NCBI GenBank assembly: GCA_041658645.1
Contig: JBAZZV010000002.1
Span: forward strand, 107,907 to 171,906
From: Candidatus Margulisiibacteriota bacterium
GTDB lineage: Bacteria; Margulisbacteria; WOR-1; O2-12-FULL-45-9; XYB2-FULL-48-7
Reading direction: 5' to 3'
DNA: 64,000 bases
Positions 15,727 through 39,429 of the stretch are shown piece by piece. Within the stretch, counting starts at the first letter, position 1. Each line of letters opens with the position of its first letter. The notes beneath the pieces were generated by a model. That model did not search any database and was not told the DNA's origin. It was given only the letters and a program-made list of their open reading frames with translations. A program made the position numbers and the translations under genes.

Positions 15727-15767
15727 GCGCTGACTTTATTATAACATAAACGGGCCCGGCCGGATTT

Positions 15768-15852
15768 TCCCGACGGACATTATTAATTTAAAATAATGGA
15801 AACGTCGGGATCCCGCCGCTCCGCTATATTAAATATAATAGTGAGGGCGGGA
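15768..15852. repeat. Double-hairpin repeat element, copy B; left boundary of AT-rich island
   Basis: TCCCGACG..CGTCGGGA | TCCCGCCG..GGCGGGA; flanked by tRNA-Asp-like fragments (cgtgacaggc anticodon segment; aaatccggccgggcccg T-loop/acceptor-like). Confidence 0.6.
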
Positions 15853-16025
15853 GAACACTCAGCATCTATCGTGACAGGCGACTCAAACCCCTCTTGAAAT
15901 AAGTGTATCACGAAGGATAACCCTGTTTCAAGGTGGTTTGAAATGGCTTTAAAGCAGTTTGATTGTGTTTGTTAAAAGATTGTTTGAAGGATATTAAGAA
16001 ATTAATAATTATGCTTGAATAGGGC

Positions 16026-16793: not shown

Positions 16794-16821
16794 TATTTTT
16801 GAGCGCTAAACCATACCTATT

Positions 16822-17037
16822 TTAATAAATCCTTTTTGCACCTTTTTTACCTGTATATGGATTAACATTCCCCTTTGTTGGCCAATTATCAATCTTAGTT
16901 CTATTTGGGAATGTCTTATAATGAGGAGCAATATAAGTCCCGCTCTTTTTAATATGCCCGCTAACACGGACACTTTTTGCAAATGAAGTAAAAGCCAAAA
17001 GAGAACAAATCAAAGCCATTAATACAAGCTTTTTCAT
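16822..17037 (-). CDS. Small secreted protein
   Basis: 71 aa; signal peptide followed by a basic Gly/Lys-rich mature peptide (NPYTGKKG). Confidence 0.35.
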   Translation of the reverse strand: MKKLVLMALICSLLAFTSFAKSVRVSGHIKKSGTYIAPHYKTFPNRTKIDNWPTKGNVNPYTGKKGAKRIY

Positions 17038-17051
17038 TCTATGTCTTCCTC

Positions 17052-17357
17052 CTATTTATTCGGGGCTATGGGCTTTATTATAAACAGAGATACAAAGAAT
17101 ATGACCACTGATATGAAATCAATAATAACCCATAACTCTTTATCTAAATATATTGGAAATATAGGATTAAACAATATAGCGAGAAGAGCAAACATCCAAA
17201 CAAAAACCCTCTTTTGTTGTTCATAAGATAAATAAGTATTATAAGCCGATGCTCCACAAATAAACCACCTTAAAAGGATATAATATCCGTATGGCATGCC
17301 TACCGGGACTGCAACTAATAACATAATTATAGCTAATATTGGCACTAAATAGTTCAT
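17052..17357 (-). CDS. Small integral membrane protein
   Basis: 101 aa, 3 predicted TM helices. Confidence 0.35.
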   Translation of the reverse strand: MNYLVPILAIIMLLVAVPVGMPYGYYILLRWFICGASAYNTYLSYEQQKRVFVWMFALLAILFNPIFPIYLDKELWVIIDFISVVIFFVSLFIIKPIAPNK

Positions 17358-17372
17358 TGGTCCCCTCCTTAC

Positions 17373-18218
17373 CTACTTGTTCCCCTCATTGCGAGACCCG
17401 CTATTGTTGGAAACCTTATTTAAAAGATAAATAAATATTCCAGACATAGCTATTCCACCCCACAAAGCTATGTCTTGTCTGTAAGAATGATAGTTCTCAT
17501 CGCTATAATAACCCCAATCATTAGGAAGAAAGAATAGCACTCGCTCAAGTCCAAACATAAACAATATAGTTAAGCCAATCCCGCATCCAACGATCAAAGC
17601 ATACTCGTTTAGATATTTGATTCCAAATAAAGGAATGCTAACCAGATCCCTCCCAACTAATTTATAAAATATATAAAGAATTGTCGACAAAAACAAATAA
17701 GCAACGAGAAGGACTAAATAGGTTCCAAGACATAACGACCCAAATAAGGTCTCTTTCCATAACATTAATGTAATAATAGGAATAGCAAGCAATACGAGTA
17801 TGGCAACCACTTCAAGTCTTTCTGATGCATTTTTGCCCATAATATATTTATCCATGAACCAAAAACACCAAAGAACGACGAAGAAGATAATATAACTAAT
17901 AGATACGGCCAATAAACCAATCGAAATAGCTAAGTCAGGGATTACGAAGACAAGGACAAGAAATACAACTGAGAGCGTAGTTCCCAATAATTTAAATAAC
18001 GGTATTTTCCAGTTTTCCACCCTTCCGCCCCAGGGCCACTGCCACAGCAACATATTAAAATATGGGAGGAAAGAGATTGCAGCAAGATTCTTATAAAAGC
18101 TCCCTTCAGTATAAGCCGCGACAACGCTACCCCCAAGCCCACCAACAAAAAATACAATTACTACAACCGATCGAATCAGTTCTTCAATATGGGAGATTAA
18201 GCTATTTTTGCTATTCAC
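17373..18218 (-). CDS. Integral membrane protein
   Basis: 281 aa, 7-8 TM helices, low GC. Confidence 0.4.
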   Translation of the reverse strand: MNSKNSLISHIEELIRSVVVIVFFVGGLGGSVVAAYTEGSFYKNLAAISFLPYFNMLLWQWPWGGRVENWKIPLFKLLGTTLSVVFLVLVFVIPDLAISIGLLAVSISYIIFFVVLWCFWFMDKYIMGKNASERLEVVAILVLLAIPIITLMLWKETLFGSLCLGTYLVLLVAYLFLSTILYIFYKLVGRDLVSIPLFGIKYLNEYALIVGCGIGLTILFMFGLERVLFFLPNDWGYYSDENYHSYRQDIALWGGIAMSGIFIYLLNKVSNNSGSRNEGNK

Positions 18219-18363
18219 TTATGGTTCCCCCTTCATGCACAAAAATGGCCCTATGCTACATAAATTATATGCCACTCTTGATAGGATTATACTATTCTAG
18301 TAATTCATACGCTACCTACCGATCTCGATAGGCATACTATGCGGATGGGCCATTCAAAATAAA

Positions 18364-18378
18364 TTGTTAGAAAACAGA
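18364..18378. promoter_or_regulatory. 15 nt motif TTGTTAGAAAACAGA, copy 1 (second copy 19691-19705)
   Basis: Exact 15-mer repeated in two intergenic regions of the island. Confidence 0.3.
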
Positions 18379-18487
18379 AATAAAAGAAGAAATGCCTTGA
18401 ATTTTCATTGCTCCATATCTATAATTCCAACATACTTGTTTTTGAAGAATTGGGAAAATGAATATTTATACAAAGGGAGTCTGAGAA

Positions 18488-18751
18488 ATGTTTTACAGTC
18501 TACACATATCATTTGGCGATGGGCATAAAGGGACATCAATAATCCTGCCCGATAAAGAAGTAGAGAGGATAAATGAACTCAGGCGAATTGCTAAAGAGAT
18601 CGAAATCCTCAGCGAAACGGGCTGGAAACATACTGAACCAATCGAACAAATACATATAAACGAGAATCAAACTCGTTGGGAAGTCATTCCAATAAGCCCC
18701 AATGAACTATCAATACTTAAAAAGAAAGTCGGAATAATCCTGAGTTCCTAG
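18488..18751 (+). CDS. Hypothetical small protein
   Basis: 87 aa ORF; only plus-strand ORF in the island. Confidence 0.3.
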   Translation: MFYSLHISFGDGHKGTSIILPDKEVERINELRRIAKEIEILSETGWKHTEPIEQIHINENQTRWEVIPISPNELSILKKKVGIILSS

Positions 18752-18769
18752 CATTCCCCCGATTGAGTG

Positions 18770-19489
18770 CTACCAAGTTGTATTATATAGGGATATTTTT
18801 ATAGTGTTATCTTCAAGTTGATTAAATGATGATATGCCATATTTAATTTTCAATTTTTTATTCTGATCGTCCGCGTCTGCGTATGCATCATAAGTCCAAT
18901 AAAACCAATTGGCAATATAAACTAATGCCCAAGTTCCGCTCGAATTATTAGTGCTGGTGCCGTAATAATTATAGGATTTTGCAGTCATCCCACTGTATGA
19001 AGCAATAGCAATAACCCAAGATCCTATTGCTTTCGGCCAATTCCCATTGACAACTTGACCACCCCCAATAATCAGAAAAGAAAGTAGCGCGGATATCCCC
19101 GGGTCTTTCTTTTCTGAGCTATATAAACTTAAATTTGACAACATTCTGTCGGAACTGCCCGAATAATATTGATTAGTTGATGGGGAATAGTTCTCATCAT
19201 CAACCATTATTGTCGTTAGCTCTCCGGATTTAATTACGACTAGCTTTTCATATTTGGTCTTCAGTGATTTTGTTTCAACAGCCCTAATTGAATGGGACCC
19301 AGCAACAACTTCTTCGAGAAAAAGAGGGGTTTCTCCTGACTTTTCTTCATCTACAAACACGTAGCATGCTGGCCCCTTAGATAACACCTTTAATTGCCCA
19401 TATTGCATATCCAGTGCTAAAGCTGCGCCTGAAAAGATTATATTTAAAGCTAATATTATAAGGACAAAAAGACAAATTGTTTTTTTCAT
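18770..19489 (-). CDS. Secreted/membrane hypothetical protein (start set at MKKTICLF signal peptide)
   Basis: Signal peptide, beta-rich N-domain, two C-terminal TM segments. Confidence 0.4.
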   Translation of the reverse strand: MKKTICLFVLIILALNIIFSGAALALDMQYGQLKVLSKGPACYVFVDEEKSGETPLFLEEVVAGSHSIRAVETKSLKTKYEKLVVIKSGELTTIMVDDENYSPSTNQYYSGSSDRMLSNLSLYSSEKKDPGISALLSFLIIGGGQVVNGNWPKAIGSWVIAIASYSGMTAKSYNYYGTSTNNSSGTWALVYIANWFYWTYDAYADADDQNKKLKIKYGISSFNQLEDNTIKISLYNTTW

Positions 19490-19690
19490 ATTGGCACCTC
19501 CTAATAAATACCACCAACTCACTCAACTACATCCTGATTATACTTCAATAGAAAGCCTGGTCAAGTTTATTATTTATCCTCTTTCTCCCCATCCTTTGCC
19601 ACGCATTTTTGCCCTTACGTTTTCCCTGTCTCTGTTTAAACCAACAAGCTTTCCCCAGCAAACAACTATTCTAAATTAATTGTTAGAAGA

Positions 19691-19705
19691 TTGTTAGAAA
19701 ACAGA
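19691..19705. promoter_or_regulatory. 15 nt motif TTGTTAGAAAACAGA, copy 2, preceded by a partial repeat
   Basis: Identical to 18364-18378. Confidence 0.3.
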
Positions 19706-20208
19706 CAAGTGAGAGAATCAACGAAAAGACACAAGCCGTTAATTTTCCCTTGTTAATACGTTTAACACTCGATCCTTCGGGCATTAGTCAGAAGTGTGGC
19801 TTATCGCTGCAGAGGTCCTTGACAACTAAATATAGAGGTCAACTATTTTATCGAAATCTTTTTTGGAGAGGGATTTTTGCATATTTATTTTAACCTTTCG
19901 TTTCCCGCTCTCAAATATTAATGGAAAAACAAAAGGACAATTTTTGCTAACCATACGATACTCTATGTATAAATCAAAAAGGAATTTGATTATCTCTGCA
20001 ATATTGAACACAAACATTATGGTTTGCCATTCAGGGCAACCACCCATCCCCGGCATAATCCCCGCCCTGCCGTGAACGGCAACTATTCTTACTTTCTTTT
20101 TAGAAACAGGTTTTTCTTGAATGGCCTTCTTGTCAATGCTTTTTATTATTTTTTGACATCGAAGGGGTTATCCCCGGGAATAGTAAGTTTAATAACCTTC
20201 TTTTTCAT

Positions 20209-20412
20209 TTAAATGTTTTTATCACGAAAGGAATAGAAGAGAATACCCAAAATAATTGTAAATGGTAAAAATACAATAAATAAAAACATAAGGAGTTTTA
20301 TTAATAGGCCCTCTAACGAATAAACGTTTGAATTCCATAGTCCAAATAAAATAAAAAAGAATGAAGATGAAATACCTAATATCCACAATATAACCGTTTG
20401 CTTTTTATTCAT
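20209..20412 (-). CDS. Small membrane protein
   Basis: 67 aa, two TM helices. Confidence 0.3.
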   Translation of the reverse strand: MNKKQTVILWILGISSSFFFILFGLWNSNVYSLEGLLIKLLMFLFIVFLPFTIILGILFYSFRDKNI

Positions 20413-20547
20413 ATTATGCCATCCCTATTTCAAAAGTTCTTCAATCCGAACCCTAAGTACTTTAGCGATAATCTGAATGGTTGACAAATTGAATTATACA
20501 CCCAAACAATAGTAATGCATAATAAAAGAAACTGGCCCAAAGGGATT

Positions 20548-20632
20548 TCCCCGACGGACATTAATATATAAATAATAGAAACGTCGGGATCCCGCCGTTC
20601 CACTATATCAAAATATATTAATGAGGGCGGGA
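20548..20632. repeat. Double-hairpin repeat element, copy C; right boundary of island, inserted in the T-loop of a partial tRNA-Asp duplicate
   Basis: Flanks ctgtcCcgcaggagaccgagggGTTC | element | AATccctttgggcc match tRNA-Asp from anticodon loop to acceptor 3' strand. Confidence 0.65.
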
Positions 20633-20735
20633 GAACCCCTCGGTCTCCTGCGGGACAGAACATACGAGAAGAAACTAAACTTGTTCTCCGTAGCCACGAG
20701 TCCCGACGAATAGTCGGGACGAGGGCGAAGGAGAA

Positions 20736-20811
20736 CGGGCCCGAAGGGATTTGAACCCTCGGTCTCCTGCGTGACAGGCAGGCGCGTTAAACCAGACTAC
20801 GCTACGGGCCC
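20736..20811 (-). tRNA. tRNA-Asp (anticodon GTC)
   Basis: GGGCCCG acceptor, anticodon loop CTGTCAC, T-loop TTCAAAT. Confidence 0.85.
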
Positions 20812-20939
20812 GCGCGAACCTCAACTTATAACCGATAACCGATAACTAATAACTTAGAAACTGTCACTTTATCAATTATCATTCAAAAAATTATTATACC
20901 AGCTAAAGGGGATGTTGGAAAGGTGTATTATGTAACTTT

Positions 20940-21284
20940 TTAAATTGAATTGATCAGCCCCAGGAGCATCTTCGAGATCTCTTCAAACACGGCATACAAT
21001 TCCTTTTGTTGCAGTTCGTTGATCACTTTATCATCAGATAACAAGTCGATGATCGCGACTACCTCGTAGGTTGACCCGCGCGCGATAGTAAAGAAGTTTT
21101 TCTTATCGGCGCTTGACGATTTGCCGGTTCCTTCGGCTATATTGAGAACTATGCTTAGCGCTGCCCTTTTAAGCTGATCAAAAAGGGCTTTATCGACGTG
21201 GTGGCTGTTGGCCAAAAGAGCGAATAGAAGCTTCCGTGCTTCCTTGGCCTTCTGATAAACCTTCAGTTTTTCAAAATCAAACAT
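20940..21284 (-). CDS. Four-helix-bundle protein (23S rRNA intervening-sequence / TIGR02436-like family)
   Basis: 114 aa; VLNIAEGTGKSS...FFTIARGSTYE motifs characteristic of the IVS-encoded four-helix bundle family. Confidence 0.65.
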   Translation of the reverse strand: MFDFEKLKVYQKAKEARKLLFALLANSHHVDKALFDQLKRAALSIVLNIAEGTGKSSSADKKNFFTIARGSTYEVVAIIDLLSDDKVINELQQKELYAVFEEISKMLLGLINSI

Positions 21285-21377
21285 AATAAATAGTACTTAG
21301 TGTGAGTGTGCGTCTTGAGTCTTGAGCGTCGTCCGCTAACTACTAACTACTCACACTCACTCTCAAGACTTAATAAA

Positions 21378-21463
21378 CGGAGGGGGAGAGATTCGAACTC
21401 TCGCTACCTTACGGTACTAACGGTTTAGCAAACCGTCCCCTTGAACCACTTGGGTACCCCTCC
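21378..21463 (-). tRNA. tRNA-Ser (anticodon GCT)
   Basis: Long variable arm; GGAGGGG acceptor; anticodon loop TTGCTAA. Confidence 0.85.
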
Positions 21464-21524
21464 ATGCTCGCTATCGCTCGAAATCCTAAATCCTAAATTC
21501 TAAATCCGAAATATAAGGTCGAAA

Positions 21525-21611
21525 CGGAGGGAGGAGGATTTGAACCTCCGATACCCTTGCGGGCATACTAGTTTTCAAGACTAGCGCCATCAGCCGCTCG
21601 GCCATCCCTCC
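21525..21611 (-). tRNA. tRNA-Ser (anticodon TGA)
   Basis: Long variable arm; GGAGGGA acceptor; anticodon loop CTTGAAA. Confidence 0.85.
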
Positions 21612-21716
21612 TCGCTCAACGAACGCTCACATTAACAATTTAGTTTATTTTTTGCAAGCTTCACTTATTATAAGTTGTGTTAGCTTGCTTTTCAAGCCCG
21701 CCTTAGGAATAATCGC

Positions 21717-21746
21717 TTGACTGCCGCGCAAGGACGCAGGTATAAT
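21717..21746 (+). promoter_or_regulatory. Sigma70-like promoter upstream of the LexA-methyltransferase gene (TTGACT-N18-TATAAT)
   Basis: Near-consensus -35 and -10 hexamers about 50 nt upstream of the start. Confidence 0.45.
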
Positions 21747-21797
21747 TAGGTCAATCGAAAATGAATCGAAAGTCAAGCGAAGGTAAGTGAAGGTCAA

Positions 21798-23252
21798 ATG
21801 ATCACCAAGAGGCAAAAACAGACCCTGGACTTTATAAAAAACCATCAACTTAGGAGAGGGTATGCCCCTTCCCTTGAGGAGATCAAGGATCATCTTAAAC
21901 TTTCTTCCGTATCAACGGCACATCATCATGTTAAAGCATTGGAAGCGCTTGGATTGCTAAAAAAAAAGGAAAACCAGCCACGCGCAATTAGTCTTTATGA
22001 TAATGAACAGTTAATTAGTATGCCTTTGCTTGGAACCATTGCCGCCGGTGAACCCATTGAAGCTATTCAGGAAAAAGAAATAATTGCCATTCCCAAATCA
22101 AAATTAACTCAAAATGGTGAGTTTTACGCGCTACGTGTTTCTGGCAATAGCATGACAGATGAAAACATTAATGATGGCGATATCATTATAGTAAAAAGCC
22201 AGTCAACGGCCAATAATGGGGAAAAAGTTGTTGCCTTAATAGACAATCAAGCAGTAACCCTAAAAAAGCTGTACAAAGAAAACAAAAACATTCGACTTCA
22301 ACCAGCTAACTCAACTATGCCCCCAATGATATTCTCCCCACAAAGGGTAAATATTCAAGGAGTCGTTGTTGAGATCGTTAAGTCCGATAAACATTCGTCG
22401 CCAGGCATGAGATATTCACCTGAAAACAATTTAGCTGCTCCCCAACATCAAAGTATTAACAATTTCCTGAACAGAGTACTTCAAGGCGATTGCCTTGAAG
22501 TAATGAAAACCATGCCTCCGAAATCAATAAATATGGTTCTGTGTGATCTCCCTTATGGAAACACCCAAAACAAATGGGACAGCATTATCCCCCTTGATAA
22601 ACTATGGACTGAATATGAAAGAATAATTAAAGATAATGGTGTTATAGTTCTTACCTCACAAGGGTTGTTTACCGCCCAATTAATCCTATCCAATCCAAGG
22701 TTATTTAAGTATAAGATTATTTGGGTAAAATCTAAGCCAACTAATTTCCTTAATGCAAAGAAACAACCGCTTCGGAGGCACGAGGATATATGCATATTTT
22801 ACAAAAACCAACCCGATTATAATCCGCAAATGACTCCCGGAGAGCCTTATAACAAGGGGTTCAGGAAAAATCAGCTGACAGGCTGTTATGGGGATTTTAA
22901 GCCTGTTAAAGTTAAAAGTGATGGCCAGCGGTATCCCACAGATGTTGTTTATTTCAAAACGGCAGAGAGTGAAGGCGTTGTTCACCATCCTACTCAAAAA
23001 CCAGTCGAGCTAGGCAGATACCTAATTAAAACATTTACAAAACCAGGAGACATTATCCTCGACAATACTTGCGGCAGTGGGAGTTTTCTTGTTTCAGCCG
23101 TTCTTGAGGATCGATTGTTTATTGGTATCGAAAAAAATGAGGAAGTATTTTTGCACAAAAAGCATCATATTGACTATATTGAAATCTGCAACAAAAGAAT
23201 TAAAGAAGCAAAAAGGAAGGCCGCTGTCGAAAACAGCAGATTGTTCGCCTAA
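21798..23252 (+). CDS. Fusion protein: full-length LexA repressor (wHTH + S24 peptidase) fused to beta-class N6-adenine/N4-cytosine DNA methyltransferase
   Basis: N-terminus has the LexA cleavage site AAGEP, catalytic SGNSM and TLKKL; C-terminus has GDCLEVMKTMPPKSINMVLCDLPYG (CcrM-like DPPY region), HPTQKP and DNTCGSGS (FxGxG). Confidence 0.75.
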   Translation: MITKRQKQTLDFIKNHQLRRGYAPSLEEIKDHLKLSSVSTAHHHVKALEALGLLKKKENQPRAISLYDNEQLISMPLLGTIAAGEPIEAIQEKEIIAIPKSKLTQNGEFYALRVSGNSMTDENINDGDIIIVKSQSTANNGEKVVALIDNQAVTLKKLYKENKNIRLQPANSTMPPMIFSPQRVNIQGVVVEIVKSDKHSSPGMRYSPENNLAAPQHQSINNFLNRVLQGDCLEVMKTMPPKSINMVLCDLPYGNTQNKWDSIIPLDKLWTEYERIIKDNGVIVLTSQGLFTAQLILSNPRLFKYKIIWVKSKPTNFLNAKKQPLRRHEDICIFYKNQPDYNPQMTPGEPYNKGFRKNQLTGCYGDFKPVKVKSDGQRYPTDVVYFKTAESEGVVHHPTQKPVELGRYLIKTFTKPGDIILDNTCGSGSFLVSAVLEDRLFIGIEKNEEVFLHKKHHIDYIEICNKRIKEAKRKAAVENSRLFA

Positions 23253-24172
23253 ATACCCGTGTAAGGTTCTTTTTTCAGTATTTGGGCAGCCCTTTCTAAT
23301 TCTTTGTCTGTTATTAAACCTTCCTCTTTAAACCATTCTAAAAGATGAAAATATTGATTTGAGCTTAAAATCGGCTTAATTTCATTAGTTATATTTGCTT
23401 TTTTCTTAATATATTCCAAGTGTTTATTGTTCAATATGCCTCGACCAATCAAGTCGTAGGTAATACGTATCGCATCAACTGAAGTGAGATTCAAATCCCC
23501 TTTTCGAGCTATATCAGCATTGACATCAGATTGGTCTATTTTGAGCAACTCATCTAAGCTTTGTAAGCCATTCAAATTTTTATTATAAAATTCAATATCA
23601 TGCTTTTGATAAGTAAACCACGTCTTGCCTTGTTCGGTTAATGAGCCTCTAGGTAAATACACGCCTTCTCGTTTAACCCTTTCTTTCGAAACCCAACCAC
23701 ATATATATAATATCCATTTTTGTCTTTTTGTCCCAGGTAGTTTTCTTGTTTTTTTACTAGGGGTTTTAAGGTGTGTCATTAAGTATATATCTACATCTAA
23801 TCGATCATCGTTCATTTGCCTTGGCCAAAAATTATGTTTTGCTTCTCTTGGAATATCATCGTTGCTTAAATATTCCTCTTTAAATGGCAGCGTGCCGCCT
23901 CTGCATTTAACATCAACCTTGATTCCGGTTGGAAGCAGAAAATCATAACCTAAAGAAGGCCGATTGCTTGGATTAATTTCAGGCATTCCTAAATATTTCC
24001 GTACAACTATTTCCGCCAAAGCACCAAACCCCTGCTGTTCTTCACTCCCTCTTTCTGCTCCGGTTGTATTCGGATTAGCGGAAACGAACTGAAATGCCTT
24101 TTGGCGCAAATCAAACCCAGCAGAATCAATCAGTTTGATGGGGATTGGTTTTGGTTTGCTGTATTGATACAT
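23249..24172 (-). CDS. Putative restriction endonuclease-like PD-(D/E)xK nuclease, convergent with and overlapping the methyltransferase gene by 4 nt
   Basis: 307 aa; SLGYDFLLPTGIKVDVKC fits D-x(n)-D-x-K; low GC; no other similarity visible by eye. Confidence 0.35.
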   Translation of the reverse strand: MYQYSKPKPIPIKLIDSAGFDLRQKAFQFVSANPNTTGAERGSEEQQGFGALAEIVVRKYLGMPEINPSNRPSLGYDFLLPTGIKVDVKCRGGTLPFKEEYLSNDDIPREAKHNFWPRQMNDDRLDVDIYLMTHLKTPSKKTRKLPGTKRQKWILYICGWVSKERVKREGVYLPRGSLTEQGKTWFTYQKHDIEFYNKNLNGLQSLDELLKIDQSDVNADIARKGDLNLTSVDAIRITYDLIGRGILNNKHLEYIKKKANITNEIKPILSSNQYFHLLEWFKEEGLITDKELERAAQILKKEPYTGI

Positions 24173-25928: not shown

Positions 25929-27710
25929 ATGCTTAACCGGATCAGGAACTTTTCCATCATCGCCCACATCGATCACGGTAAGTCGACGCTGGCCGACCGC
26001 CTGCTCGACTTCACCCACACGATCGCCAAACGCGATATGCGCGCCCAGGTCCTCGACACGATGGACCTGGAACGGGAACGCGGTATCACCATCAAGGCGC
26101 AGGCGATCAGGATGGAATACCAAAACTATATTCTTAACCTGATCGATACGCCGGGCCACGTTGATTTTTCTTACGAAGTCTCGCGCTCCCTGGCCGCCTG
26201 CGAAGGAGCCCTCCTCCTGGTCGACGCCACCCAGGGGATCGAGGCGCAGACCCTCGCCAACTACCACCTCGCCTTGAACAATAAACTGACCATCATCCCG
26301 ATCATCAACAAGATCGACCTCCCCGGCGCCGAGGTGGAAATGGCCCGGAACGAGCTGATCAACACCCTCGGCTTCAAGTCCGAGGATATCTTGCTCGCTT
26401 CGGCCAAGGAGGGGCGCGGCATCGGCGAGATCATTGACGCGGTGATCAAACGGGTCCCCGCTCCGCTGGGCGATCCCGACGCGCCGCTGCAAGCTTTGAT
26501 CTTTGATTCCCATTACGACCCCTACCGCGGCGTGATCATCTATATCCGGATCGTCAACGGCACGTTAAATAAGGGGGACAAGATCCTGTTAATGGGGACC
26601 GGCAAGGATTTTGAGGCCCTGGAGATCGGCACCCTCCGGCTCGACCTGATCCCGCGCGACACTCTCTCCGCCGGCGAGGTCGGCTATCTGATCGGCAATA
26701 TCAAAACCATCTCTGACGCGCACGTCGGCGACACCGTGACCAATATCAAGCGGCAGGCCACCACTGCCCTCCCCGGCTATAAGAAGATCAAGCCGATGGT
26801 CTTCTGCGGTTTTTATCCGATCAACGGCGAAGATTATAAGCTCCTCAAGGAATCGATCGAAAAGCTGCAGCTTAACGACGCCGCCCTTTTTTATGAACCG
26901 GAAACCTCGGCGGCACTCGGCTTTGGTTTCCGCTGCGGTTTTCTCGGCCTCCTCCATCTGGAAATAACCCAGCAGCGGCTGACCAGGGAATTTAATATTG
27001 GGCTGATCGCCACCACCCCGAACGTCGTCTATAAAGTAAATTTGCATAACAAAAAGACCCTGTTCATTGACAACCCGACCAAGCTTCCCGATGTGTCGGC
27101 GATCGAATCGATCGAGGAACCGTATTTGAAAGTGAGCATCTTCACCCCGGCCGAGTACGTCGGCTCGGTCATGACCCTGGCCACGGAAAAACGGGGGACC
27201 TTCATCAACCTGGAATATCTCGACCCGACCCGGGCCGTGGCCACTTATGAAATACCGCTGGCCGAAGTGATCATCGAGTTCCACGATCTGCTTAAATCGG
27301 TGACCAAAGGTTACGCCTCGATGGATTACGAGCAGATCGGTTTCCGGCCTTCTGACCTCGTCAAACTCGATATCCTGATCAACGGGGAGCTGGTCGACGC
27401 TCTCTCCTTCATCGTCCACCGCGACCGCGCCTACTACTACGGCAAGAAGCTGACCGAGCGGTTGGTCGAGGAGATCCCCCAGCATCAGTTCTCTGTCCCG
27501 ATCCAGGCGGCGATCGGCGGCAAAGTGATCGCCCGCGAGACGATCCGCGCCCGGCGCAAGGATGTGCTGGCCAAATGCTACGGCGGCGACATCACCCGCA
27601 AGCGGAAGCTCCTGGAAAAACAGAAAGAGGGGAAAAAGAAGATGAAGCTGATCGGCCGGGTCGAGATCCCCCAGGAAGCATTCCTCGCCGTCCTGCGCAT
27701 CGGGCAATGA
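25929..27710 (+). CDS. lepA: Elongation factor 4
   Basis: 593 aa; N-terminus [20 protein letters not shown] (G1 motif); LepA C-terminal domain. Confidence 0.9.
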
Positions 27711-29038
27711 CCGCCTCGCTCTACGTCCACATCCCCTTTTGCAAACAAAAGTGCAACTACTGTGATTTCGTTTCTTATGCCGGGAAGGAAAATTTCATTG
27801 ACGAGTATGTTGAGACGATGATCCGAGAATTCGAGTCCCGGTGTTCTGTGCTCTATGTTCCGTGTTCTACTGTCTTCTTCGGCGGCGGGACCCCGACCCT
27901 GCTCGAACCAAAGCATTTCGATAAAATATTATCCACATTCATTAGTCATTCGTCATTAGTCATTAGTCATTCAGAGATCTCCATCGAAGCTAATCCAGGA
28001 ACTGCCGGCAAAGCCAAGCTAAAAGCCCTTAGACAACTCGGTATCAACCGTCTCTCGATCGGCGTCCAGTCGTTCAACGACCGGCAGCTAAAGACCCTGG
28101 GGCGGATCCATGACTCCGCCACAGCTAAACGTTTTTATCAGGACGCGCGTGACGCCGGCTTCGACAATATTAATCTCGATCTGATCTTCGCCCTGCCCGG
28201 GCAGACCTTAGCTGAATGGAAACGCGATCTGGCCACGGCGATCGCGCTAAAACCAGAACATCTTTCAACTTATAATTTACAAATTGAAGAGGGAACACCT
28301 TTCTGGGAAAGGTTCAAAGAGCCCTCACCCGCTGCCGCAAACCGACGCACCCTCTCCCAGAGGGAGAGGGTAATGAGCCAAGCAGACTTGCAAAACACCT
28401 TCTCCCCCCCTCACCCGCTTACGCAAAGTGTCCCCCCTCTCCCAGAGGGAGAGGGTACTTCGCCTTTAATTCCCGTTTGCGCAACACCTTCTCCCTTTGG
28501 GAGAAGGTGCGCCTCCTTGGCGCATTGGATGAGGGGAGAGAAGGTGCATAGTTCTGGTAGAGCGGATGAGGGCCTCAGTCTCCCTTCCGAAGATGAAGAG
28601 CTGGCAATGTATGAATATGCCATCGAAGAACTGGCCGCTCACGGCTACAAACATTATGAGATCTCTAATTTTGCTAAACCGGGTTATGAATGTCAGCACA
28701 ATTTGGTTTACTGGCGGAACGAGAATTATCTCGGCATTGGCGCCGGCGCGCACTCCCATGTAAACGGCCAGCGCTGGTCTAATCCAAACTGTATCGAAAA
28801 ATACCTGGAAACCGCGACGTTTAGTCGCAGGTTTCCAGGTTCGACTGCCGACCAACGCGAAACGATCTTCCTCGGCCTCCGCCTCCTGGACGGTTTGTCA
28901 ATTAAGAAATTTAAAGGCTTTGAGGCTCAAGTCGCTGAACTGATAAAAGACGGCTTGTTAACCGAGGAAAAGGGGAATTATAAACTAACCCGGCAAGGTC
29001 TATATCTGGGCAATCTGGTCTTCGAGAAGTTCGTATAA
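27707..29038 (+). CDS. hemW: Radical SAM heme chaperone HemW (HemN-like), carrying an approximately 84 aa in-frame insertion
   Basis: [10 protein letters not shown] (CxxxCxxC); GGGTPT; C-terminal HemN domain; start ATG overlaps lepA stop (ATGA). Confidence 0.8.
27936..27974. repeat. Heptanucleotide tandem repeat CATT(A/C)GT, about 5.5 copies, inside the hemW coding region
   Basis: cattcattagtcattcgtcattagtcattagtcattcag; encodes [13 protein letters not shown]. Confidence 0.5.
28321..28573. mobile_element. MITE-like hairpin repeat element (TIR GCCCTCACC/GGTGAGGGC-like), copy 1, inserted in frame within hemW
   Basis: Contains two CCCTCTCCC-AGA-GGGAGAGGG perfect hairpins plus CACCTTCTCCC-TTT-GGGAGAAGGTG; ends gccctcaccc ... 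tggtagagcggatgagggc; homologous to the 49391-49521 copy. Confidence 0.55.
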
Positions 29039-29041
29039 GCC

Positions 29042-29524
29042 TTAGGCCTTCAAATATCCCAAGAAATTGAAGAATCCTTTTCCTGGTATAACAAAATCCG
29101 CTCCCACCCCCATCATCTCTTTGTTCTTCTTACCGCTGGCTGAATTGGCTGCAATATAACCCTTATATTTCAAATCTCTTAATTCCTTTACTAATTCCGG
29201 GCCCGAGGTGTTGAACATCTGCCCATCCATAACAACCAATTCCGGATTGTGTTCAGCAACGAGTTTAAGTCCCTGCTCTCTTATTGGGAGACCCGGATCA
29301 ACCGCTACAACTTTAACATTGTAATCTCTCAGCAGCTGTTGCGCACTTTTCAAATAATTGGGGTCATCATCAACCAGAAGGATCGTCTTGATGACTTGTG
29401 GCCTGCCCGGTTTAACAAATTCCGCCTTTAGCTGCACGCCGACTGCCGGCGAATGACCTGCCGCCATAAAACATCGGTAATCAAATAGTTTTCTGTAAGA
29501 AGACACGGGAAATTTAACGTCCAC
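29042..29524 (-). CDS. Response-regulator receiver-domain protein (stand-alone, CheY-like)
   Basis: LLVDDD acidic pocket, VVMDGQM phospho-acceptor region, conserved Lys near the C-terminus. Confidence 0.45.
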   Translation of the reverse strand: MDVKFPVSSYRKLFDYRCFMAAGHSPAVGVQLKAEFVKPGRPQVIKTILLVDDDPNYLKSAQQLLRDYNVKVVAVDPGLPIREQGLKLVAEHNPELVVMDGQMFNTSGPELVKELRDLKYKGYIAANSASGKKNKEMMGVGADFVIPGKGFFNFLGYLKA

Positions 29525-29590
29525 TTCATCAGCCTCCTGCTAATGAGATTATCATCATTTTCAATCTGGAATTTCATCAAATCCGCCCTC

Positions 29591-29646
29591 TTGACACTTA
29601 TACAATAAACTTGTTATAATTAGCACTCCAAAGGAGAGAGTGCTAA
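29591..29646 (+). promoter_or_regulatory. Sigma70 promoter (TTGACA-N18-TATAAT) followed by a perfect CIRCE operator, TTAGCACTC-N9-GAGTGCTAA
   Basis: CIRCE at 29620-29646 overlaps the hrcA RBS and start; textbook HrcA operator. Confidence 0.85.
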
Positions 29647-30395
29647 TGCCGGCTAAGTTAGAATTAGATGACCGTAAAAAACGTATTTTAGAGGCGATCG
29701 TCCGGGATTATCTGCACACAGCCGAACCGGTCGGCTCGCGCACTATCTGGCGCGCTTACATGCCCGATCTTTCCCCCGCCACCATCCGCAACGAAATGGC
29801 CGACCTGGAAGCGCTCGGGATGATCGTCCAGCCGCACACTTCGGCCGGGCGGGTCCCGACCGACCTCGGCTATCGCTTTTATGTCGATCACATGATGAAA
29901 TCTCGCCAGTTGACGGTCAAGGAAGAAGAGGTCATTCACGAAGGGTTGAAAGAGATCCACGATGACCTGGAAGATACCATGCACCAGACCCTCAAGGTAC
30001 TCTCCCACCTGCTCGACTATGCCTCGGTCATCGCCACCCTGCAGGACAAGCAGCGGGTCTATGCCGGTGGTTTCGCCCATATGCTCAAGCAACCGGAGTA
30101 TTCCGACGTCAAACTCTCCCGGCGCATTTTTGAAACACTGGAAGAAGAGGACCTGATGGCCAACATGGTCAAGGAATACACGACCGAAAAAGGGATCACC
30201 ATCAAGATCGGCGCGGAGAATACTTTTAAGGAAGTTAAGGACTGCAGCGTGGTCATGGCCTCGTATAAAGTCAACAAAGTGACCGGCGGGCTCGGCGTCA
30301 TCGGACCGACCCGGATGAGCTACGCCCGGACCGCCACTATTTTGGAAAGCATCTCCCGACGCCTGGAAGTTTTATTGGAGGGACATAATGACTGA
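29646..30395 (+). CDS. hrcA: Heat-inducible transcription repressor HrcA
   Basis: N-terminal wHTH (RKKRILEAIVRDYLHTAEPVGSR); operon context with CIRCE. Confidence 0.85.
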   Translation: MPAKLELDDRKKRILEAIVRDYLHTAEPVGSRTIWRAYMPDLSPATIRNEMADLEALGMIVQPHTSAGRVPTDLGYRFYVDHMMKSRQLTVKEEEVIHEGLKEIHDDLEDTMHQTLKVLSHLLDYASVIATLQDKQRVYAGGFAHMLKQPEYSDVKLSRRIFETLEEEDLMANMVKEYTTEKGITIKIGAENTFKEVKDCSVVMASYKVNKVTGGLGVIGPTRMSYARTATILESISRRLEVLLEGHND

Positions 30396-30882
30396 AGAGT
30401 TGGAAGAAATTAAGCCGGAACTGCCGCCAGAAAAAAGCGAGCTCGAGCTGATGAAGGAGCAGGTAGCCGAGGGGAAGAATAGGATGCTCCGGGCAATGGC
30501 CGATCTTGATAACTTCAAGAAGCGCTCTTTGCTCGAGCGGGAACAGTTCGTTCAGTTCGCCAACGAAACGCTGATCAGCGACACCCTCCCCGTCCTCGAC
30601 GGCTTTAGCCGGGCGCTCGACGCGGCCGCCAAGATGAAGGCCGGGGAAGAGCTGACCAAAGGGCTTGCCCTGATCAAACGCCAGCTCGAGGACGTCTTAA
30701 CCAAACACGGGGTCAAAGTGATCGAAGCGGTCGGCAAAGTTTACGACCCAAATTTACACGAAGCAATTTTACAGAAAGAGCACCACGGCCCGGAGAATGT
30801 TATCATTGAAGAGATGCAAAAAGGTTACACCTTGCACGGGCGGGTTATCCGGCCGTCTATGGTGATCGTCAGCAAGAAATGA
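30388..30882 (+). CDS. grpE: Nucleotide exchange factor GrpE
   Basis: 164 aa; coiled-coil N-terminus; RAMADLDNFKKR...GYTLHGRVIRPSMV. Confidence 0.85.
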   Translation: MTEELEEIKPELPPEKSELELMKEQVAEGKNRMLRAMADLDNFKKRSLLEREQFVQFANETLISDTLPVLDGFSRALDAAAKMKAGEELTKGLALIKRQLEDVLTKHGVKVIEAVGKVYDPNLHEAILQKEHHGPENVIIEEMQKGYTLHGRVIRPSMVIVSKK

Positions 30883-30986
30883 CAAATGTCCAATGTCGCG
30901 TTGAATGTCAAATGTCCAATGACAAATGTCAAATGAAGGTGTCGCCTGCGGCGACATTATTCTAATCGGAAATCAACAACAAGCTT

Positions 30987-31298
30987 ATGTTAAATGAAGA
31001 ATCAAAAATAAAAATAGATTCATTGACAATAAAAGAATTGGGGGAAAACCTTGCGTTCAGCTATTACGGGGCAATGGATTCAGAGAAGTCGAGATATGCT
31101 CAACATGTTCTTGAGATGAAAAAACGAGAAGAAAACGATGACAGAATCTTGGCTTTGATAGGTTCAATAGGCAATTTAGCTAATTCAAACGAGAAAACAG
31201 CTAAATCTCAAGGTCAACTTACGTTTTGGCAGGTTGTTTTGGCGGGAGCACTCACACTAGCCACATTTGGGTTGATTTATGTTACGTGGATTAAATAA
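30987..31298 (+). CDS. Small hypothetical protein with a C-terminal TM helix (cassette cargo)
   Basis: 103 aa, AT-rich. Confidence 0.35.
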   Translation: MLNEESKIKIDSLTIKELGENLAFSYYGAMDSEKSRYAQHVLEMKKREENDDRILALIGSIGNLANSNEKTAKSQGQLTFWQVVLAGALTLATFGLIYVTWIK

Positions 31299-31654
31299 TG
31301 CAAATTCAGGATAGAGCACTGGAATTTGCGGTCAGGATAATAAAGTTTGCTGATAAGTTACCGAAATCGGCAGCGGGGGCGGTTTTGGTTAAGCAATTGA
31401 TCCGTTCCGGGACATCGATTGGGGCGAATATGGAAGAAGCGGATGGCGCTTCGTCGAAAGCCGATTTTATTAATAAAGTAACGATTGCTAGGAAAGAAGC
31501 AAGGGAAACGCATTATTGGCTACAGCTAATTAAGAAGGCGGAATTGATACATAAAGATAATATTGTTGAATTGGATAGTTTAATTAATGAGGCGGAAGAA
31601 TTGAAGCGTGTTCTTAGCGCAATCATTAACAAAGCAAGAGAAAAGAAACAATGA
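31298..31654 (+). CDS. Four-helix-bundle protein (23S rRNA IVS-encoded protein family)
   Basis: 118 aa; GTSIGANMEEADGASSKADFINKVTIARKEARETHYWLQL matches the family signature. Confidence 0.7.
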   Translation: MQIQDRALEFAVRIIKFADKLPKSAAGAVLVKQLIRSGTSIGANMEEADGASSKADFINKVTIARKEARETHYWLQLIKKAELIHKDNIVELDSLINEAEELKRVLSAIINKAREKKQ

Positions 31655-31789
31655 CAAATGACCAATTAAAAATGACAAATGAAGGTATGCCTTCGGCATA
31701 TCATTTTAATAACGTCGCGCAGCGACACATCAATTTGACATTTGTCATTGGACATTTGACATTAATAAAGGATAAGGGGGAGTAAAGAA

Positions 31790-33676
31790 ATGGCACAGGA
31801 AAAGATCATTGGGATAGATCTGGGGACAACTAACAGTTGCGTGGCGGTAATGATGGGGGGAGAAGCGACCGTCATCCCGAACTCGGAGGGAGGCCGGACC
31901 ACCCCATCGATCGTCGCTTTCCTCAAGGACGGGGCCCGGGTCGTCGGCCAAGTGGCAAAAAGACAGTCGATCACTAATCCGGAGCATACTATCTCCTCAA
32001 TCAAAAGATTTATGGGGCGGCGGTTCGACGAGGTCGGCGGCGAGCTAAAGTATGTCCCCTATCGGGTGGTTAAAGGGAGCAAAGACGAAGTTAAGATCAA
32101 GATTGACGAGAAAGATCACACCCCGCCGGAGATCTCGGCCATGATCCTGCAAAAGATGAAACAGTCGGCCGAGGATTTTCTCGGCGAGCAGGTCAAGAAA
32201 GCGGTCATCACCGTCCCGGCATATTTTAACGACAGCCAGCGCCAGGCGACCAAGGACGCCGGCACCATCGCCGGCCTCGAGGTCGTCCGGATCATTAACG
32301 AACCGACCGCCGCTTCCCTGGCTTACGGCATTGAAAAAAAGAAAGAGGAAAAGGTCGCGGTGTTCGATCTTGGCGGCGGAACTTTTGACGTCTCGGTCCT
32401 TGATATCATGGAAGGCTCGATCGAAGTCCTGGCGACCAACGGCGACACCCATCTCGGCGGCGATGATTTTGACCAGCACATCATGAAGTGGCTGCTCGAC
32501 GAGTTCAAGAAAGACCAGGGGATCGACCTGGGTAAAGACCGGCTGGCAATGCAGCGGCTCAAGGAATCGGCCGAAAAAGCCAAATGCGAGCTCTCCACCG
32601 CCGTGGAAACCGAGATCAACCTCCCCTTCCTGACCGCTGATGCTTCCGGCCCCAAGCACCTGGTCATCAAGCTGACCCGGTCCAAGCTGGAACAGCTGGT
32701 CGGCGACCTGATCGAGCGGTCGATCGCTCCGTGCAAACAAGCGCTCGCCGACGCTGGCCTCAAGGCCAACCAGATCAACGAGGTCATCCTGGTCGGCGGC
32801 ATGACCAGAATGCCTAAAGTTCAGGAAACGGTTAAAGCCTTCTTCGGCAAAGAACCGCACAAAGGGGTCAATCCGGATGAAGTGGTCGCGCTCGGCGCGG
32901 CCATCCAGGGCGGGATCATGTCCGGCGAGACTTCGAAGGAAATGGTCCTGCTTGATGTCACCCCCTTGACCCTCGGGATCGAGACCCTGGGGAGCGTCAT
33001 GACCCCATTGGTCGAGCGGAATACCACCATCCCTTATGAAAAAAGCCAGGTCTTTTCGACCGCGGCTGACGGGCAAACCTCGGTCGAAGTCCATATTCTC
33101 CAAGGGGAACGGCCGATGGCCGCAGATAACCGGACGCTCGGCCGCTTCCATCTCGACGGGATCCCGCCGGCGCCGCGCGGCATCCCCCAAGTCGAAGTAA
33201 CCTTTGATATTGACGCCAACGGGATCCTCAATGTCCGGGCCAAGGATAAAGGGACCGGCAAAGAGCAGAAGATCACCATCACCGCCTCATCCGGCCTGTC
33301 CAAGGACGAGATCGAGAAGATGAAGAAGACCGCCGAGGCGCACGAAGCCGAGGATAAGAAAAAACGGGAAGAAGTCGACACCCGCAACCAGGCCGATGCC
33401 ATGGCCTACTCCGCGGAAAAGACCTTAAAAGAGGCCGGTGACAAGGTCGACGCACCGACCAAAGAGAAGGTCGAGAAGGCGATCGCCGAAACCCGCCAGA
33501 CGCTGGCTGGAACTGACGCCGAAGCGATCAAGAAGTCCCTCGAGAACCTCCAGAAAGAGGTCTACGAGATGTCGGCCAAGATTTATAAAGAAGCCGAACC
33601 GGCCCCCGGCCCGAAAGACGAAACACGAACCACGAACGATGACGAAAAAACGATCGACGCTGAAACGGCGCCATGA
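31790..33676 (+). CDS. dnaK: Molecular chaperone DnaK
   Basis: [24 protein letters not shown], and more. Confidence 0.95.
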
Positions 33677-35425: not shown

Positions 35426-35427
35426 TA

Positions 35428-35449
35428 AAAGAGAGGGACCCTCCCTTTA
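35428..35449. terminator. GC-rich near-palindrome AAAGAGAGGGACCCTCCCTTT flanked by A and T runs; likely bidirectional terminator
   Basis: Lies between convergent rsmE and the 35489-36265 gene; identical copy at 38626-38646. Confidence 0.4.
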
Positions 35450-35488
35450 AAGTATCCAAGTTATCTTTAAAGTTCGGGCCCCTGCTCT

Positions 35489-36265
35489 TTATAGAACGAT
35501 CGGCTGGCAAACTGAGAGACTGATACCCTTGGAAGTGACGGTGTTCGAGCGGACAACATTGTATCCGATCTCAAATCCGGTCTTCCCTAACCCGAGGCCG
35601 AGGTCAGCATTGATGCCAAAATAGACATCGCCGCCGAGCTTGCCGCTGGTCTGGCCGTTGCCATAAGCAACGTAGTTCAGCCCACCAGTGAGATAGCTGT
35701 CGAGACCACCCATCCACTCCGCCGGCAAACTAATGATGCCGCCGCCGTAGACTGGGACAGCCTTTAAGCCTCCTCCACCCATGACATAACCTGTACCAAC
35801 CTTGAACTTCACGGCATTGGCCGACAGGCCAACCATGGGCCCAAGACCGATAAAGTCATCCAACACCAGGTTGCCCATCGCCCCGATGGAACCGGAGAGC
35901 GATCCCTTTCCAGTGCTGATATACAGACCGGAGAGAGAAGTGTTGAGCCCCATTCCGAACAATCCAGCGGAAGCGGCCGGCTTAACGACGACCGAGGCTG
36001 GCGGAACAGGAGCGACTGGCGGTGGCGCGACTTCCAGCGAAGCTTTCAGCTTATTCCAGCGGGCCAGAGTCGCGGCTTTGTCAGCTTTCAAAATAGACAG
36101 CTTAACTGTCTGTTTAGCATTCCGAGCCTTGACTATCTTCACGTCGATCACCTTCAGGTAATCCCTGACCGCTTGTTTTTCCTCATCTATCGTCCGGCCA
36201 AAAGCAACGCTGGCCACTGAAGCCATGAAAGCCATGACCACAAAAAATATAATTACTTTCTTCAT
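35489..36265 (-). CDS. Secreted Gly-rich protein, paralog 1 (probable outer-membrane/beta-rich C-domain)
   Basis: Signal peptide; Pro-rich linker; C-domain nearly identical to the 38686-39429 product. Confidence 0.5.
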   Translation of the reverse strand: MKKVIIFFVVMAFMASVASVAFGRTIDEEKQAVRDYLKVIDVKIVKARNAKQTVKLSILKADKAATLARWNKLKASLEVAPPPVAPVPPASVVVKPAASAGLFGMGLNTSLSGLYISTGKGSLSGSIGAMGNLVLDDFIGLGPMVGLSANAVKFKVGTGYVMGGGGLKAVPVYGGGIISLPAEWMGGLDSYLTGGLNYVAYGNGQTSGKLGGDVYFGINADLGLGLGKTGFEIGYNVVRSNTVTSKGISLSVCQPIVL

Positions 36266-38470: not shown

Positions 38471-38685
38471 ATTCCCTCCTTGCAAAATATTAACGGGCGA
38501 AGATCAACGTTTGACTACAGTGAATTATATTTCACATCCCCTAGTTTTACTATATTAAGCATGCGCTTTATCCCTTGTATGTCAAGCCTTATTCTGTTTT
38601 TCGGTAAAATAATATAGCAGAAAAAAAGAGAGGGACCCTCCCTTTAAAGTATCCAAGTTATCTTTAAAGTTCGGGCCCCTGCTCT

Positions 38686-39429
38686 TTATAGAACGATCGG
38701 CTGGGAAACTGTTAGACTGATACCCTTGGAAGTGACGGTGTTCGAGCGGACAACACTGTATCCGATCTCAAATCCGGTCTTCCCGAGACCAAGGCCGAGG
38801 TCAGCCCTGATGCCATATTTGGCATCTCCACCGATCTTGCCGCTGGTCTGGCCGTTGCCATAGACAACGTAGTTCAATCCACCTGTCAGATAGCTATCAA
38901 GACCACCCATCCACTCCGCCGGCAAACTAATGATGCCGCCGCCGTAGACTGGGACAGCCTTTAAGCCTCCTCCACCCATGACATAACCTGTACCAACCTT
39001 GAACTTCACGGCATTGGCCGACAGGCCAACCATGGGCCCAAGACCGATAAAGTCATCCAACACCAGGTTGCCCATCGCCCCGATGGAACCGGAGAGCGAT
39101 CCCTTTCCAGTGCTGATATACAGACCGGAGAGAGAAGTGTTGAGCCCCATTCCGAACAATCCAGCGGAAGCGGCCGGCTTAACGACGACCGGGGCTGGCG
39201 GAACAGGAGCGACTGGCGGTGGCGGCGGTGCGATAGGAGCCGGCATGGCTTTGGCCGGAGAAGCCTTTTTCACGGCCTTCTTGACCACCTTCTTAACCAC
39301 TTTCTTCTTAACCACTTTCTTCTTGGCAACGACCTTCTTTTTAACAACGGCCGCAGCATCTGAAGAGTAGACTCCCGCAACACCGACAAAGAACGCCAAC
39401 AAAACAAATAAACCTACTAATCTTTTCAT
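38686..39429 (-). CDS. Secreted Gly-rich protein, paralog 2, with N-terminal KKKVV lysine-rich repeats
   Basis: C-domain and 3' flank about 95-100% identical at the DNA level to 35427-36020. Confidence 0.5.
   Translation of the reverse strand: MKRLVGLFVLLAFFVGVAGVYSSDAAAVVKKKVVAKKKVVKKKVVKKVVKKAVKKASPAKAMPAPIAPPPPPVAPVPPAPVVVKPAASAGLFGMGLNTSLSGLYISTGKGSLSGSIGAMGNLVLDDFIGLGPMVGLSANAVKFKVGTGYVMGGGGLKAVPVYGGGIISLPAEWMGGLDSYLTGGLNYVVYGNGQTSGKIGGDAKYGIRADLGLGLGKTGFEIGYSVVRSNTVTSKGISLTVSQPIVL

Follow-up and report, generated by a model that had tools for sequence, protein, structure and literature searches.

The hemW gene in a 64,000-nucleotide (nt) stretch of DNA from a Candidatus Margulisiibacteriota bacterium (contig JBAZZV010000002.1, positions 107,907 to 171,906; referred to here as the window) contains 84 extra codons composed of two nested copies of one structured repeat. 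With a probability of roughly 0.7, this segment is selfish or neutral structured repeat DNA rather than an evolved protein domain. What is new here is an in-frame palindromic repeat built of BoxC-type units, in-frame palindromic repeats and BoxC-type units both being known already.

An earlier note on this DNA, made from the letters alone, claimed that HemW has an extra segment of ~84 amino acids (aa) at a point where homologues have only a few residues, and alignment with 120 HemW orthologues bears out both the segment and its insertion point. Residues 206-289 lack a counterpart in the HemW family profile and fall in the linker between EEGTP[FL] and LP[ST]E[DE], which spans 1-10 aa where it is unoccupied. 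The segment leads from the radical S-adenosylmethionine (SAM) core to the C-terminal domain and ends immediately before LSLPSEDEE. The extra codons (nt 28322-28573) amount to a net in-frame gain of 252 nt, and the 253 nt of the insert as delimited in Table 1 include one flanking base.

Profile matches and motifs identify the host gene as a bona fide HemW. The gene starts at an ATGA that overlaps the stop codon of lepA, its product scores 315 bits against the TIGR00539 HemW profile (cutoff 205) in an alignment broken into two stretches flanking the insert, and both the Radical_SAM and HemN_C domains are found with Pfam. The CxxxCxxC (C12/C16/C19) and HNxxYW (H331-N332-Y335-W336) motifs are intact and conserved in the orthologue alignment. 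The database entry with exactly the same protein is the HemW of a Candidatus Margulisiibacteriota metagenome-assembled genome, and identical hemW DNA is found in two further assemblies. Outside the insert, the ratio of nonsynonymous to synonymous substitution rates (dN/dS) is 0.07-0.2 relative to relatives at dS ~0.3 to >1.8 (the distant ones being saturated), and hemW is therefore under purifying selection. These observations bear on the possibility that the segment is a misassembled repeat collapse, or that it sits in a hemW pseudogene that is open by chance. Repeats are a classic cause of local assembly errors, but the occurrence of the same sequence in two more assemblies and of the nested insert in a lineage from another sample, the intact motifs, low dN/dS and confidently predicted fold, and the open frame of all six independent copies of the element in hemW genes make an artefact or a dead gene barely credible.

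The insert is two nested elements of one repeat type (Table 1). The termini and hairpins described in the earlier note are all confirmed, and the hairpin pattern has five matches in the whole window against 0.01 expected (three in hemW and two in the copy at 49392-49520). Folding of the insert, computed with nearest-neighbour parameters and Watson-Crick pairs only, yields a nested cruciform with z-scores of -6.9 for DNA and -7.65 for RNA relative to shuffled sequences. The predicted DNA and RNA folds pair the outer termini with each other, the CACCTTCTCCC arm at 28396-28406 with GAGAGAAGGTG, and the inner terminus at 28408-28416 with that at 28527-28535, a pattern that places the full inner element within the loop of outer hairpin 2. 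The terminal inverted repeats, GCCCTCACCCGC / GCGGATGAGGGC, are 12-13 nt long and pair in the predicted fold, with a C.A or T.G mismatch at the subtype position in most copies. Without the inner element, the outer copy measures 124 nt, and single copies at the same site in orthologues measure 115, 127, 115 and 136 nt. Each of the two elements has a stand-alone relative on a related metagenome contig, one 82% identical to the outer copy (L147) and the other 81% identical to the inner copy (L142, from the same sample as L001). The closest relative of the window (L001, from a different sample of the same study) holds the same nested arrangement.

Table 1. Coordinates of hemW, of the repeat insert and its parts, and of other repeats in the window.
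Feature	Position	Strand	Basis
hemW, radical-SAM heme chaperone, 443 aa, carries the insert	27707-29038	+	Open reading frame and translation, TIGR00539, Pfam
Complete nested repeat insert, residues 206-289	28321-28573	+	Sequence, orthologue alignment, folding, AlphaFold
Outer element, left part: terminus GCCCTCACCC (28321-28330), perfect hairpin 1 CCCTCTCCC-AGA-GGGAGAGGG (28350-28370), spacer, left arm of hairpin 2 CACCTTCTCCC (28396-28406)	28321-28406	+	Sequence, fold
Inner element, 129 nt, 43 codons, in the loop of outer hairpin 2	28407-28535	+	Sequence, fold, relative L142
Inner element, parts: terminus CCCTCACCC; perfect hairpin CCCTCTCCC-AGA-GGGAGAGGG; perfect hairpin CACCTTCTCCC-TTT-GGGAGAAGGTG; terminus GGATGAGGG	28408-28416; 28435-28455; 28485-28509; 28527-28535	+	Sequence, fold
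Inner element, mini-hairpin GCGCC-TCCTT-GGCGC	28509-28523	+	Sequence, fold
Outer element, right part: right arm of hairpin 2 GAGAGAAGGTG (28536-28546), spacer, terminus GGATGAGGGC (28564-28573)	28536-28573	+	Sequence, fold
Third copy of the element, core of 129 nt (49392-49520), hairpins at 49420-49440 and 49470-49490	49391-49521	+	Sequence match, hairpin scan
Heptamer tandem repeat, GTGTTCY-like, translated within hemW	27842-27869		
Heptamer tandem repeat TCATTAG x4.7, coding, inside hemW	27939-27971	+	Repeat scan
Perfect palindrome TGGAAACC-GCGAC-GTTTA-GTCGC-AGGTTTCCA, coding, inside hemW, further repeat family	28806-28837	+	One match versus 0.01 expected

The element is an inverted pair of half-units, each consisting of a 9-nt block CCCTCAYCC (GGRTGAGGG on the other strand), a spacer of 17-28 nt, and a 9-bp hairpin CCYTCTCCC-NNN-GGGAGARGG, in which a pyrimidine arm and a purine arm enclose a 3-nt loop in all five hairpins of the window. 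Judged by its sequence, this repeat unit is the BoxC / PIT / TM 'intrastrand triplex' motif in a form whose second loop is long. The hairpin and the third block are the same as in the TMECO entries of Escherichia coli (Table 1 of PMC4666352), and the five intact half-units for which pairing was computed contain nine of nine Watson-Crick pairs and eight or nine of nine allowed purine-motif triads. The motif is present in >260 genomes (PMC4666352), and further sources describe BoxC/PIT (Hoyne & Maher 2000; Cozzuto et al. 2008, PMC2267715). When one genome of each species was scanned, the terminus-spacer-hairpin pattern had at least 120 matches; those listed include Proteobacteria, Acidobacteria, Planctomycetes, Verrucomicrobia, Thermodesulfobacteriota and Saganbacteria, among others, but not the source genome, and the spacer between hairpin and third block measures 11-23 nt in the cross-phylum matches listed. 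Across phyla, half-units often occur singly, with just one terminus. The same pattern occurs in 94 IMG/VR viral contigs, and phages could be carriers of the motif across phyla. In 63 of the 81 distinct viral-contig matches, the spacer forms a mini-hairpin of its own (4-6 bp).

Three bases were left free in the search pattern, namely the Y of CCCTCAYCC, the Y of the 5' hairpin arm and the R of the 3' arm. These bases occur only as C,C,G or as T,T,A in 142 of the 145 genome matches listed, in 79 of the 81 distinct viral matches and in all 13 Margulisbacteria half-units, and the covarying bases are exactly those from which a single triad of a purine-motif triplex would form. Within one element, the two termini are mostly of different subtypes and consequently mismatch each other. 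Since the termini covary with their own hairpin and not with the opposite terminus, the 'terminal inverted repeats' are more aptly regarded as the third block of their half-units. The characterization in the earlier note of a MITE (miniature inverted-repeat transposable element) bounded by such repeats inside hemW thus survives as regards a structured repeat inserted in frame, and fails as regards a single MITE, the insert being two nested copies whose termini are the third block of the BoxC/PIT/TM motif.

A classical MITE would be a non-autonomous derivative of an insertion sequence (IS), moved by a transposase acting on the GCCCTCACC / GGTGAGGGC termini, that landed in frame by chance. The inverted termini of 12-13 nt, the small size, the several dispersed copies and the nested insertion, which is typical of mobile DNA, all agree with such an origin. 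It is nevertheless unlikely, because the variable terminus base matches its own hairpin while the two termini of most elements mismatch, single half-units with one terminus are so widespread, and the E. coli members show no association with transposons, phages or plasmids (PMC4666352). In addition, a target-site duplication is unreadable at any of the ~12 copies, the flanks of which contain no direct repeat. The bacterial MITEs described to date (e.g., Correia/NEMIS, Nezha and Chunjie; PMC10969869) resemble the element in size, inverted termini, dispersed copies and occasional fusion to open reading frames (ORFs), but differ in that here no target-site duplication is seen, no cognate IS was found (none being specifically searched for), and covariation links each terminus to the internal hairpin, not to the other terminus.

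Copies of the repeat also occur outside the hemW linker. The homologous copy that the earlier note reported at 49391-49521 is real, whereas its description as intergenic holds only in part. Its neighbours are an M50 peptidase gene and a folC-like gene (minus strand), and because its left terminus overlaps the probable folC start (ATG 49402 or GTG 49414), the copy is not purely intergenic. Four of the six frames across it are interrupted by stop codons, including the one that hemW uses. A half-unit lies in frame within the linker between the Fer4_20 and Pyr_redox_2 domains of a GltD-like gene, and a metagenome scan with a more specific pattern identified 18 loci. Four further CCCTCACCC matches in the window (14184, 34875, 41856 and 47526) lack hairpins and were set aside as chance. 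A search of positions 27000-32500 against Rfam at E <= 1 returned only a sub-threshold chance match to a miRNA (33.6 bits versus a gathering score of 137). In the non-coding copies (49392-49520 of the window, L136, L142, L147 and L033), the cores between CCCTCA and TGAGGG measure 129, 117, 111, 126 and 126 nt, all multiples of three (3n), while the hemW-resident cores are all 3n+2, a difference that may be due to chance. Four contigs of JAABUN01 (L138, L143, L145 and L146) contain a longer family of 139-190 nt built on the same half-unit, which there forms perfect inverted ends of ~65 nt; the centre that they enclose is variable (40-90 nt), and the palindromy extends into the flanks.

The pattern of open frames indicates how the insert is accommodated. 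All six hemW-resident copies lack stop codons in the frame used and add a multiple of three nucleotides (114, 126, 114, 135, 129 and 252 nt), whereas each of the five non-coding copies is interrupted there by one stop or more. The six are the outer and inner copies of the window and those in L002, L004, L005 and L127. One frame of the G-rich terminus includes a TGA, and this frame is not used by the hemW copies. The occurrence of stop-free 3n copies in hemW only implies that these copies are read, and removal of the insert at the RNA level or ribosomal bypass was rejected on the same grounds. The comparison with Rickettsia palindromic elements drawn in the earlier note, on the basis that the frame is maintained, is thus upheld by 84 stop-free codons and intact gene motifs. 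The suggestion that the protein tolerates a surface-loop insertion also agrees with structure prediction: an AlphaFold2 model based on the 120-sequence alignment (predicted template modelling score 0.81) predicts a disordered insert in a core with predicted local distance difference test (pLDDT) values >90. Residues 213-216 and 228-284 fall below 50, and the means of 10-residue blocks range from 25 to 54 over residues 211-290. The predicted location is after strand 185-190 and helix 198-203 and before helix 295-311, and the insert starts directly past the part that aligns to solved HemN-family structures. The model and the frame pattern support an insert that is a passenger, presumably translated and read through as a disordered loop.

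An alternative is that the Pro/Ser/Arg-rich loop is a selected protein feature, i.e., an adaptive disordered linker or interaction segment in which the palindromes are incidental. The frame is indeed open across lineages separated by dS >1, and the segment lies exactly between two domains. However, near-identical non-coding DNA has stops in the hemW frame, the flipped orientation of the element in some orthologues produces a different peptide, and many orthologues have a linker of 1-10 aa. The residues conserved among insert-bearing orthologues are translations of the conserved DNA blocks, so that protein conservation coincides with DNA structure. A word-indexed protein search with the 84-aa insert gave no match, and an exhaustive HMMER search of 1.8 billion proteins with the insert peptide found only three unrelated tandem-repeat proteins; the peptide is not a protein family. 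Taken with these findings, a selected protein feature is very improbable, and a structured repeat carried as a passenger is the preferred reading.

The same linker is filled in other HemW proteins. Six orthologues that are 55-66% identical (P0003, P0005, P0006, P0039, P0041 and P0044) each contain one full element at the same codon, starting 6 residues past TP[FL] and stopping 2 residues short of LP, and further orthologues hold remnants of the element. The earlier note had regarded a segment shared with relatives, if free of any repeat signature, as evidence against a repeat insertion; in divergent orthologues the same codon does hold the segment, though complete with its repeat signature, which makes the insertion either old or repeated at a hot spot, and not unique to this genome. 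P0005 and P0041 have the element in reverse orientation, encoding a different peptide; because the element is quasi-palindromic, the matching antisense frame is also open. Elsewhere among the 120 orthologues the linker is filled by unrelated repeats (e.g., the EPATERRGS..EETAKFIRRFP palindrome, CLPAG-type hairpins and heptamer tandem repeats), such that at least four repeat families occupy the HemW linker across Margulisbacteria and Saganbacteria. Permissive linkers of housekeeping genes gather repeat DNA in this phylum. The 1-5 aa form is probably the ancestral linker. Two 'empty' linkers of 10 aa, KAQLITNNLQ (L128/P0031) and YAELPTSNLK (L129/P0004), are encoded by ACAACTT / AACTTCC heptamer repeats.

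In a neighbour-joining (NJ) tree of HemW, carriers are scattered and often stand beside non-carriers; since the tree is star-like and poorly resolved, one ancient gain followed by many losses is not separable from repeated gains. The closest filled and empty pair (P0044 and P0031) is 97-100% identical except for ~400 nt around the linker, and the junctions are not readable because this difference reflects allelic replacement and not a clean insertion. A mosaic is likewise seen between the window and L001, which differ at 1 of 253 nt (0.4%) in the insert (28321-28573), 5.6% in the left flank (250 nt), 13.4% in the right flank and 26% at the 3' end of hemW (Fisher test of the insert versus both flanks, p = 1e-7), with zero synonymous differences across the 84 insert codons. 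The 5' part of the gene is similar in the two as well, but the divergence of the insert is significantly below that of either flank. This mosaic identity suggests that insert-bearing alleles move among related, co-occurring lineages by homologous recombination.

Such a distribution also raises the possibility of a homing-like, site-specific element, in which structure-induced breaks or stalling would stimulate gene conversion of empty alleles by filled ones where lineages occur together. This would resemble the spread of inteins and homing introns but without an endonuclease. Every carrier has the element at the same codon, in both orientations, with a sporadic spread over the HemW tree; the element is much better conserved than its flanks; the recombination tracts in two strain pairs are centred on the linker; and TM loci are unstable in E. 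coli (PMC4666352). Homing is still quite improbable given the copies at unrelated loci (upstream of folC, in the GltD-like gene and at intergenic sites), the unrelated repeats in the same linker, which fit a merely permissive site, and the comparison of only two strain pairs. A broader and speculative proposal, tentative at best, is that BoxC/PIT-type palindromes are live, structure-targeted mobile DNA in Margulisbacteria and Saganbacteria, aimed at single-stranded hairpin loops and at permissive inter-domain linkers of essential genes. They would spread among co-occurring lineages by break-stimulated gene conversion, homing-like but with no endonuclease, and would, along with heptamer and other palindromic repeats, keep generating and exchanging peptide segments in housekeeping proteins.

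Under the favoured explanation, that of selfish or neutral repeat DNA, the segment would have arisen in several steps. One element would have entered the DNA of the HemW inter-domain linker in an ancestor within Margulisbacteria/Saganbacteria, or elements would have entered repeatedly at a hot spot. Only stop-free versions of 3n length in the hemW frame would then persist, as the ORF pattern indicates, presumably translated as a disordered surface loop. A second element, from another subfamily and exactly 43 codons long, would have entered the hairpin 2 loop of the first in an ancestor shared with the closest relative; the nesting itself is observed directly, and insertion into a single-stranded hairpin loop is the route it suggests. 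Finally, the insert-bearing allele would pass between related lineages by homologous recombination, as the mosaic identity suggests. Neither a target duplication nor a link to a transposase is evident for the making of new copies, although no search aimed at transposases was made.

Several points weigh against this explanation or against parts of it. The second loop of 17-28 nt exceeds the 1-6 nt of Holder et al. (PMC4666352) and the 0-10 nt of Hoyne et al., so that the Margulisbacteria copies fall outside the short second loop by which triplex motifs are defined. Holder et al. saw no stable triplex in vivo even with the compact E. coli motif, which forms a triplex as an isolated strand in vitro (PMC4666352). 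Two ancient subfamilies, each copied as a unit, could account for the three-way covariation without a repeatedly enforced structural constraint. The NJ tree is poorly resolved, and no empty/filled pair with clean junctions was found that would show an insertion or a target duplication. The near-identity of the insert between two lineages is unexpected for a purely neutral passenger, and its translation is deduced from the ORF pattern.

Known repeat systems share some features with the element and differ in others. It shares with BoxC/PIT/TM motifs the 9-nt blocks CCCTCTCCC-loop-GGGAGAGGG plus GGGTGAGGG, a mirror symmetry that permits G.G:C, A.A:T and T.A:T triads, a frequent arrangement in inverted heterotypic pairs, the lack of a known mobilising enzyme and a tie to locally variable DNA; in E. 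coli, TM loci are associated with locally unstable DNA (PMC4666352). It differs in the length of the second loop (17-28 nt versus 3-4 nt) and of the whole element (111-134 nt versus 34-56 nt), in its T/A subtype (CCTTCTCCC / GGATGAGGG), in the nested copy, and in a host phylum that is new for the motif. E. coli K-12 has 23 copies, which frequently form inverted heterotypic pairs and are 'always intergenic' (PMC4666352), whereas the hemW copies and the GltD-like half-unit are intragenic and in frame. Rickettsia palindromic elements (RPEs; Ogata et al. 2000) and other in-frame repeat insertions (reviewed in PMC3184786), including the BRE of Bordetella, are similarly palindromic repeats of ~100-150 nt that lie in frame in conserved genes, keep the ORF, occupy structurally permissive places and have non-coding copies too. 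RPEs are apparently unrelated in sequence, and the Margulisbacteria element is distinguished from them by its triplex-type half-units, its nested double copy, a free-living candidate phylum as host instead of an obligate intracellular bacterium, and the filling of the same codon in orthologues in both orientations and by other repeat families. REPIN/BIME elements (paired REPs mobilised by RAYT; PMC3116915, PMC3733652) are extragenic, and the termini here read GCCCTCA and lack the GTAG/CGTC tag.

BoxC/PIT/TM motifs have been known for 30 years and are conserved in hundreds of genomes, without an established function or mode of spread. This locus adds self-nesting, an open copy of 3n length in an essential-type gene, occupation of one codon in either orientation in deeply diverged orthologues, and, between two sympatric lineages, an insert whose conservation far exceeds that of its flanks. 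It thus offers a concrete system for asking how such elements spread, whether recombination is stimulated by them and by what path repeat DNA turns into protein, its useful features being the hairpin-loop target, the recombination tracts and the contrast of coding with non-coding copies. It is also a warning for annotation, as many differences in protein length in Margulisbacteria and Saganbacteria are translated repeats.

Besides the insert, the hemW gene of the window contains at least three more repeat-derived stretches, i.e., the two heptamer arrays and the palindrome listed in Table 1. At the position of the TCATTAG array, orthologues have heptamer-coded segments of the CHLSLDIGHSE type, and L001 has a different palindromic repeat. 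The palindrome is related to the EPATERRGS..EETAKFIRRFP segments that fill the main linker in other orthologues, and L001 contains a 108-nt expansion at this site (its positions 1660-1770).

The window is rich in further 7-nt tandem arrays, which are reminiscent of the STRR repeats of cyanobacteria. A two-gene cassette between grpE and dnaK (30904-31763) encodes a 103-aa protein without a Pfam match and a 118-aa four-helix-bundle protein of the 23S_rRNA_IVP family, and lies between two inverted blocks of 42 nt, 93% complementary and made of AATGACA/AATGTCA heptamers; L001 has a comparable though not identical cassette, and none is present in other relatives. A conserved element of ~95 nt with internal inverted repeats, CCCGACGGACATTAT..ATAATGGAAACGTCGGGATCCCG, which has no Rfam match, is found at 12537-12633, 15738-15833 and 20519-20612, in each case beside a minus-strand cluster of tRNA genes. 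Positions 16000-24000 form an island of low GC content (34-44% versus 55-60% elsewhere) with several tRNA genes and many short tandem repeats, and a 300-nt direct repeat with 92% identity is found at 35427-35726 and 38624-38923, 3.2 kb apart.

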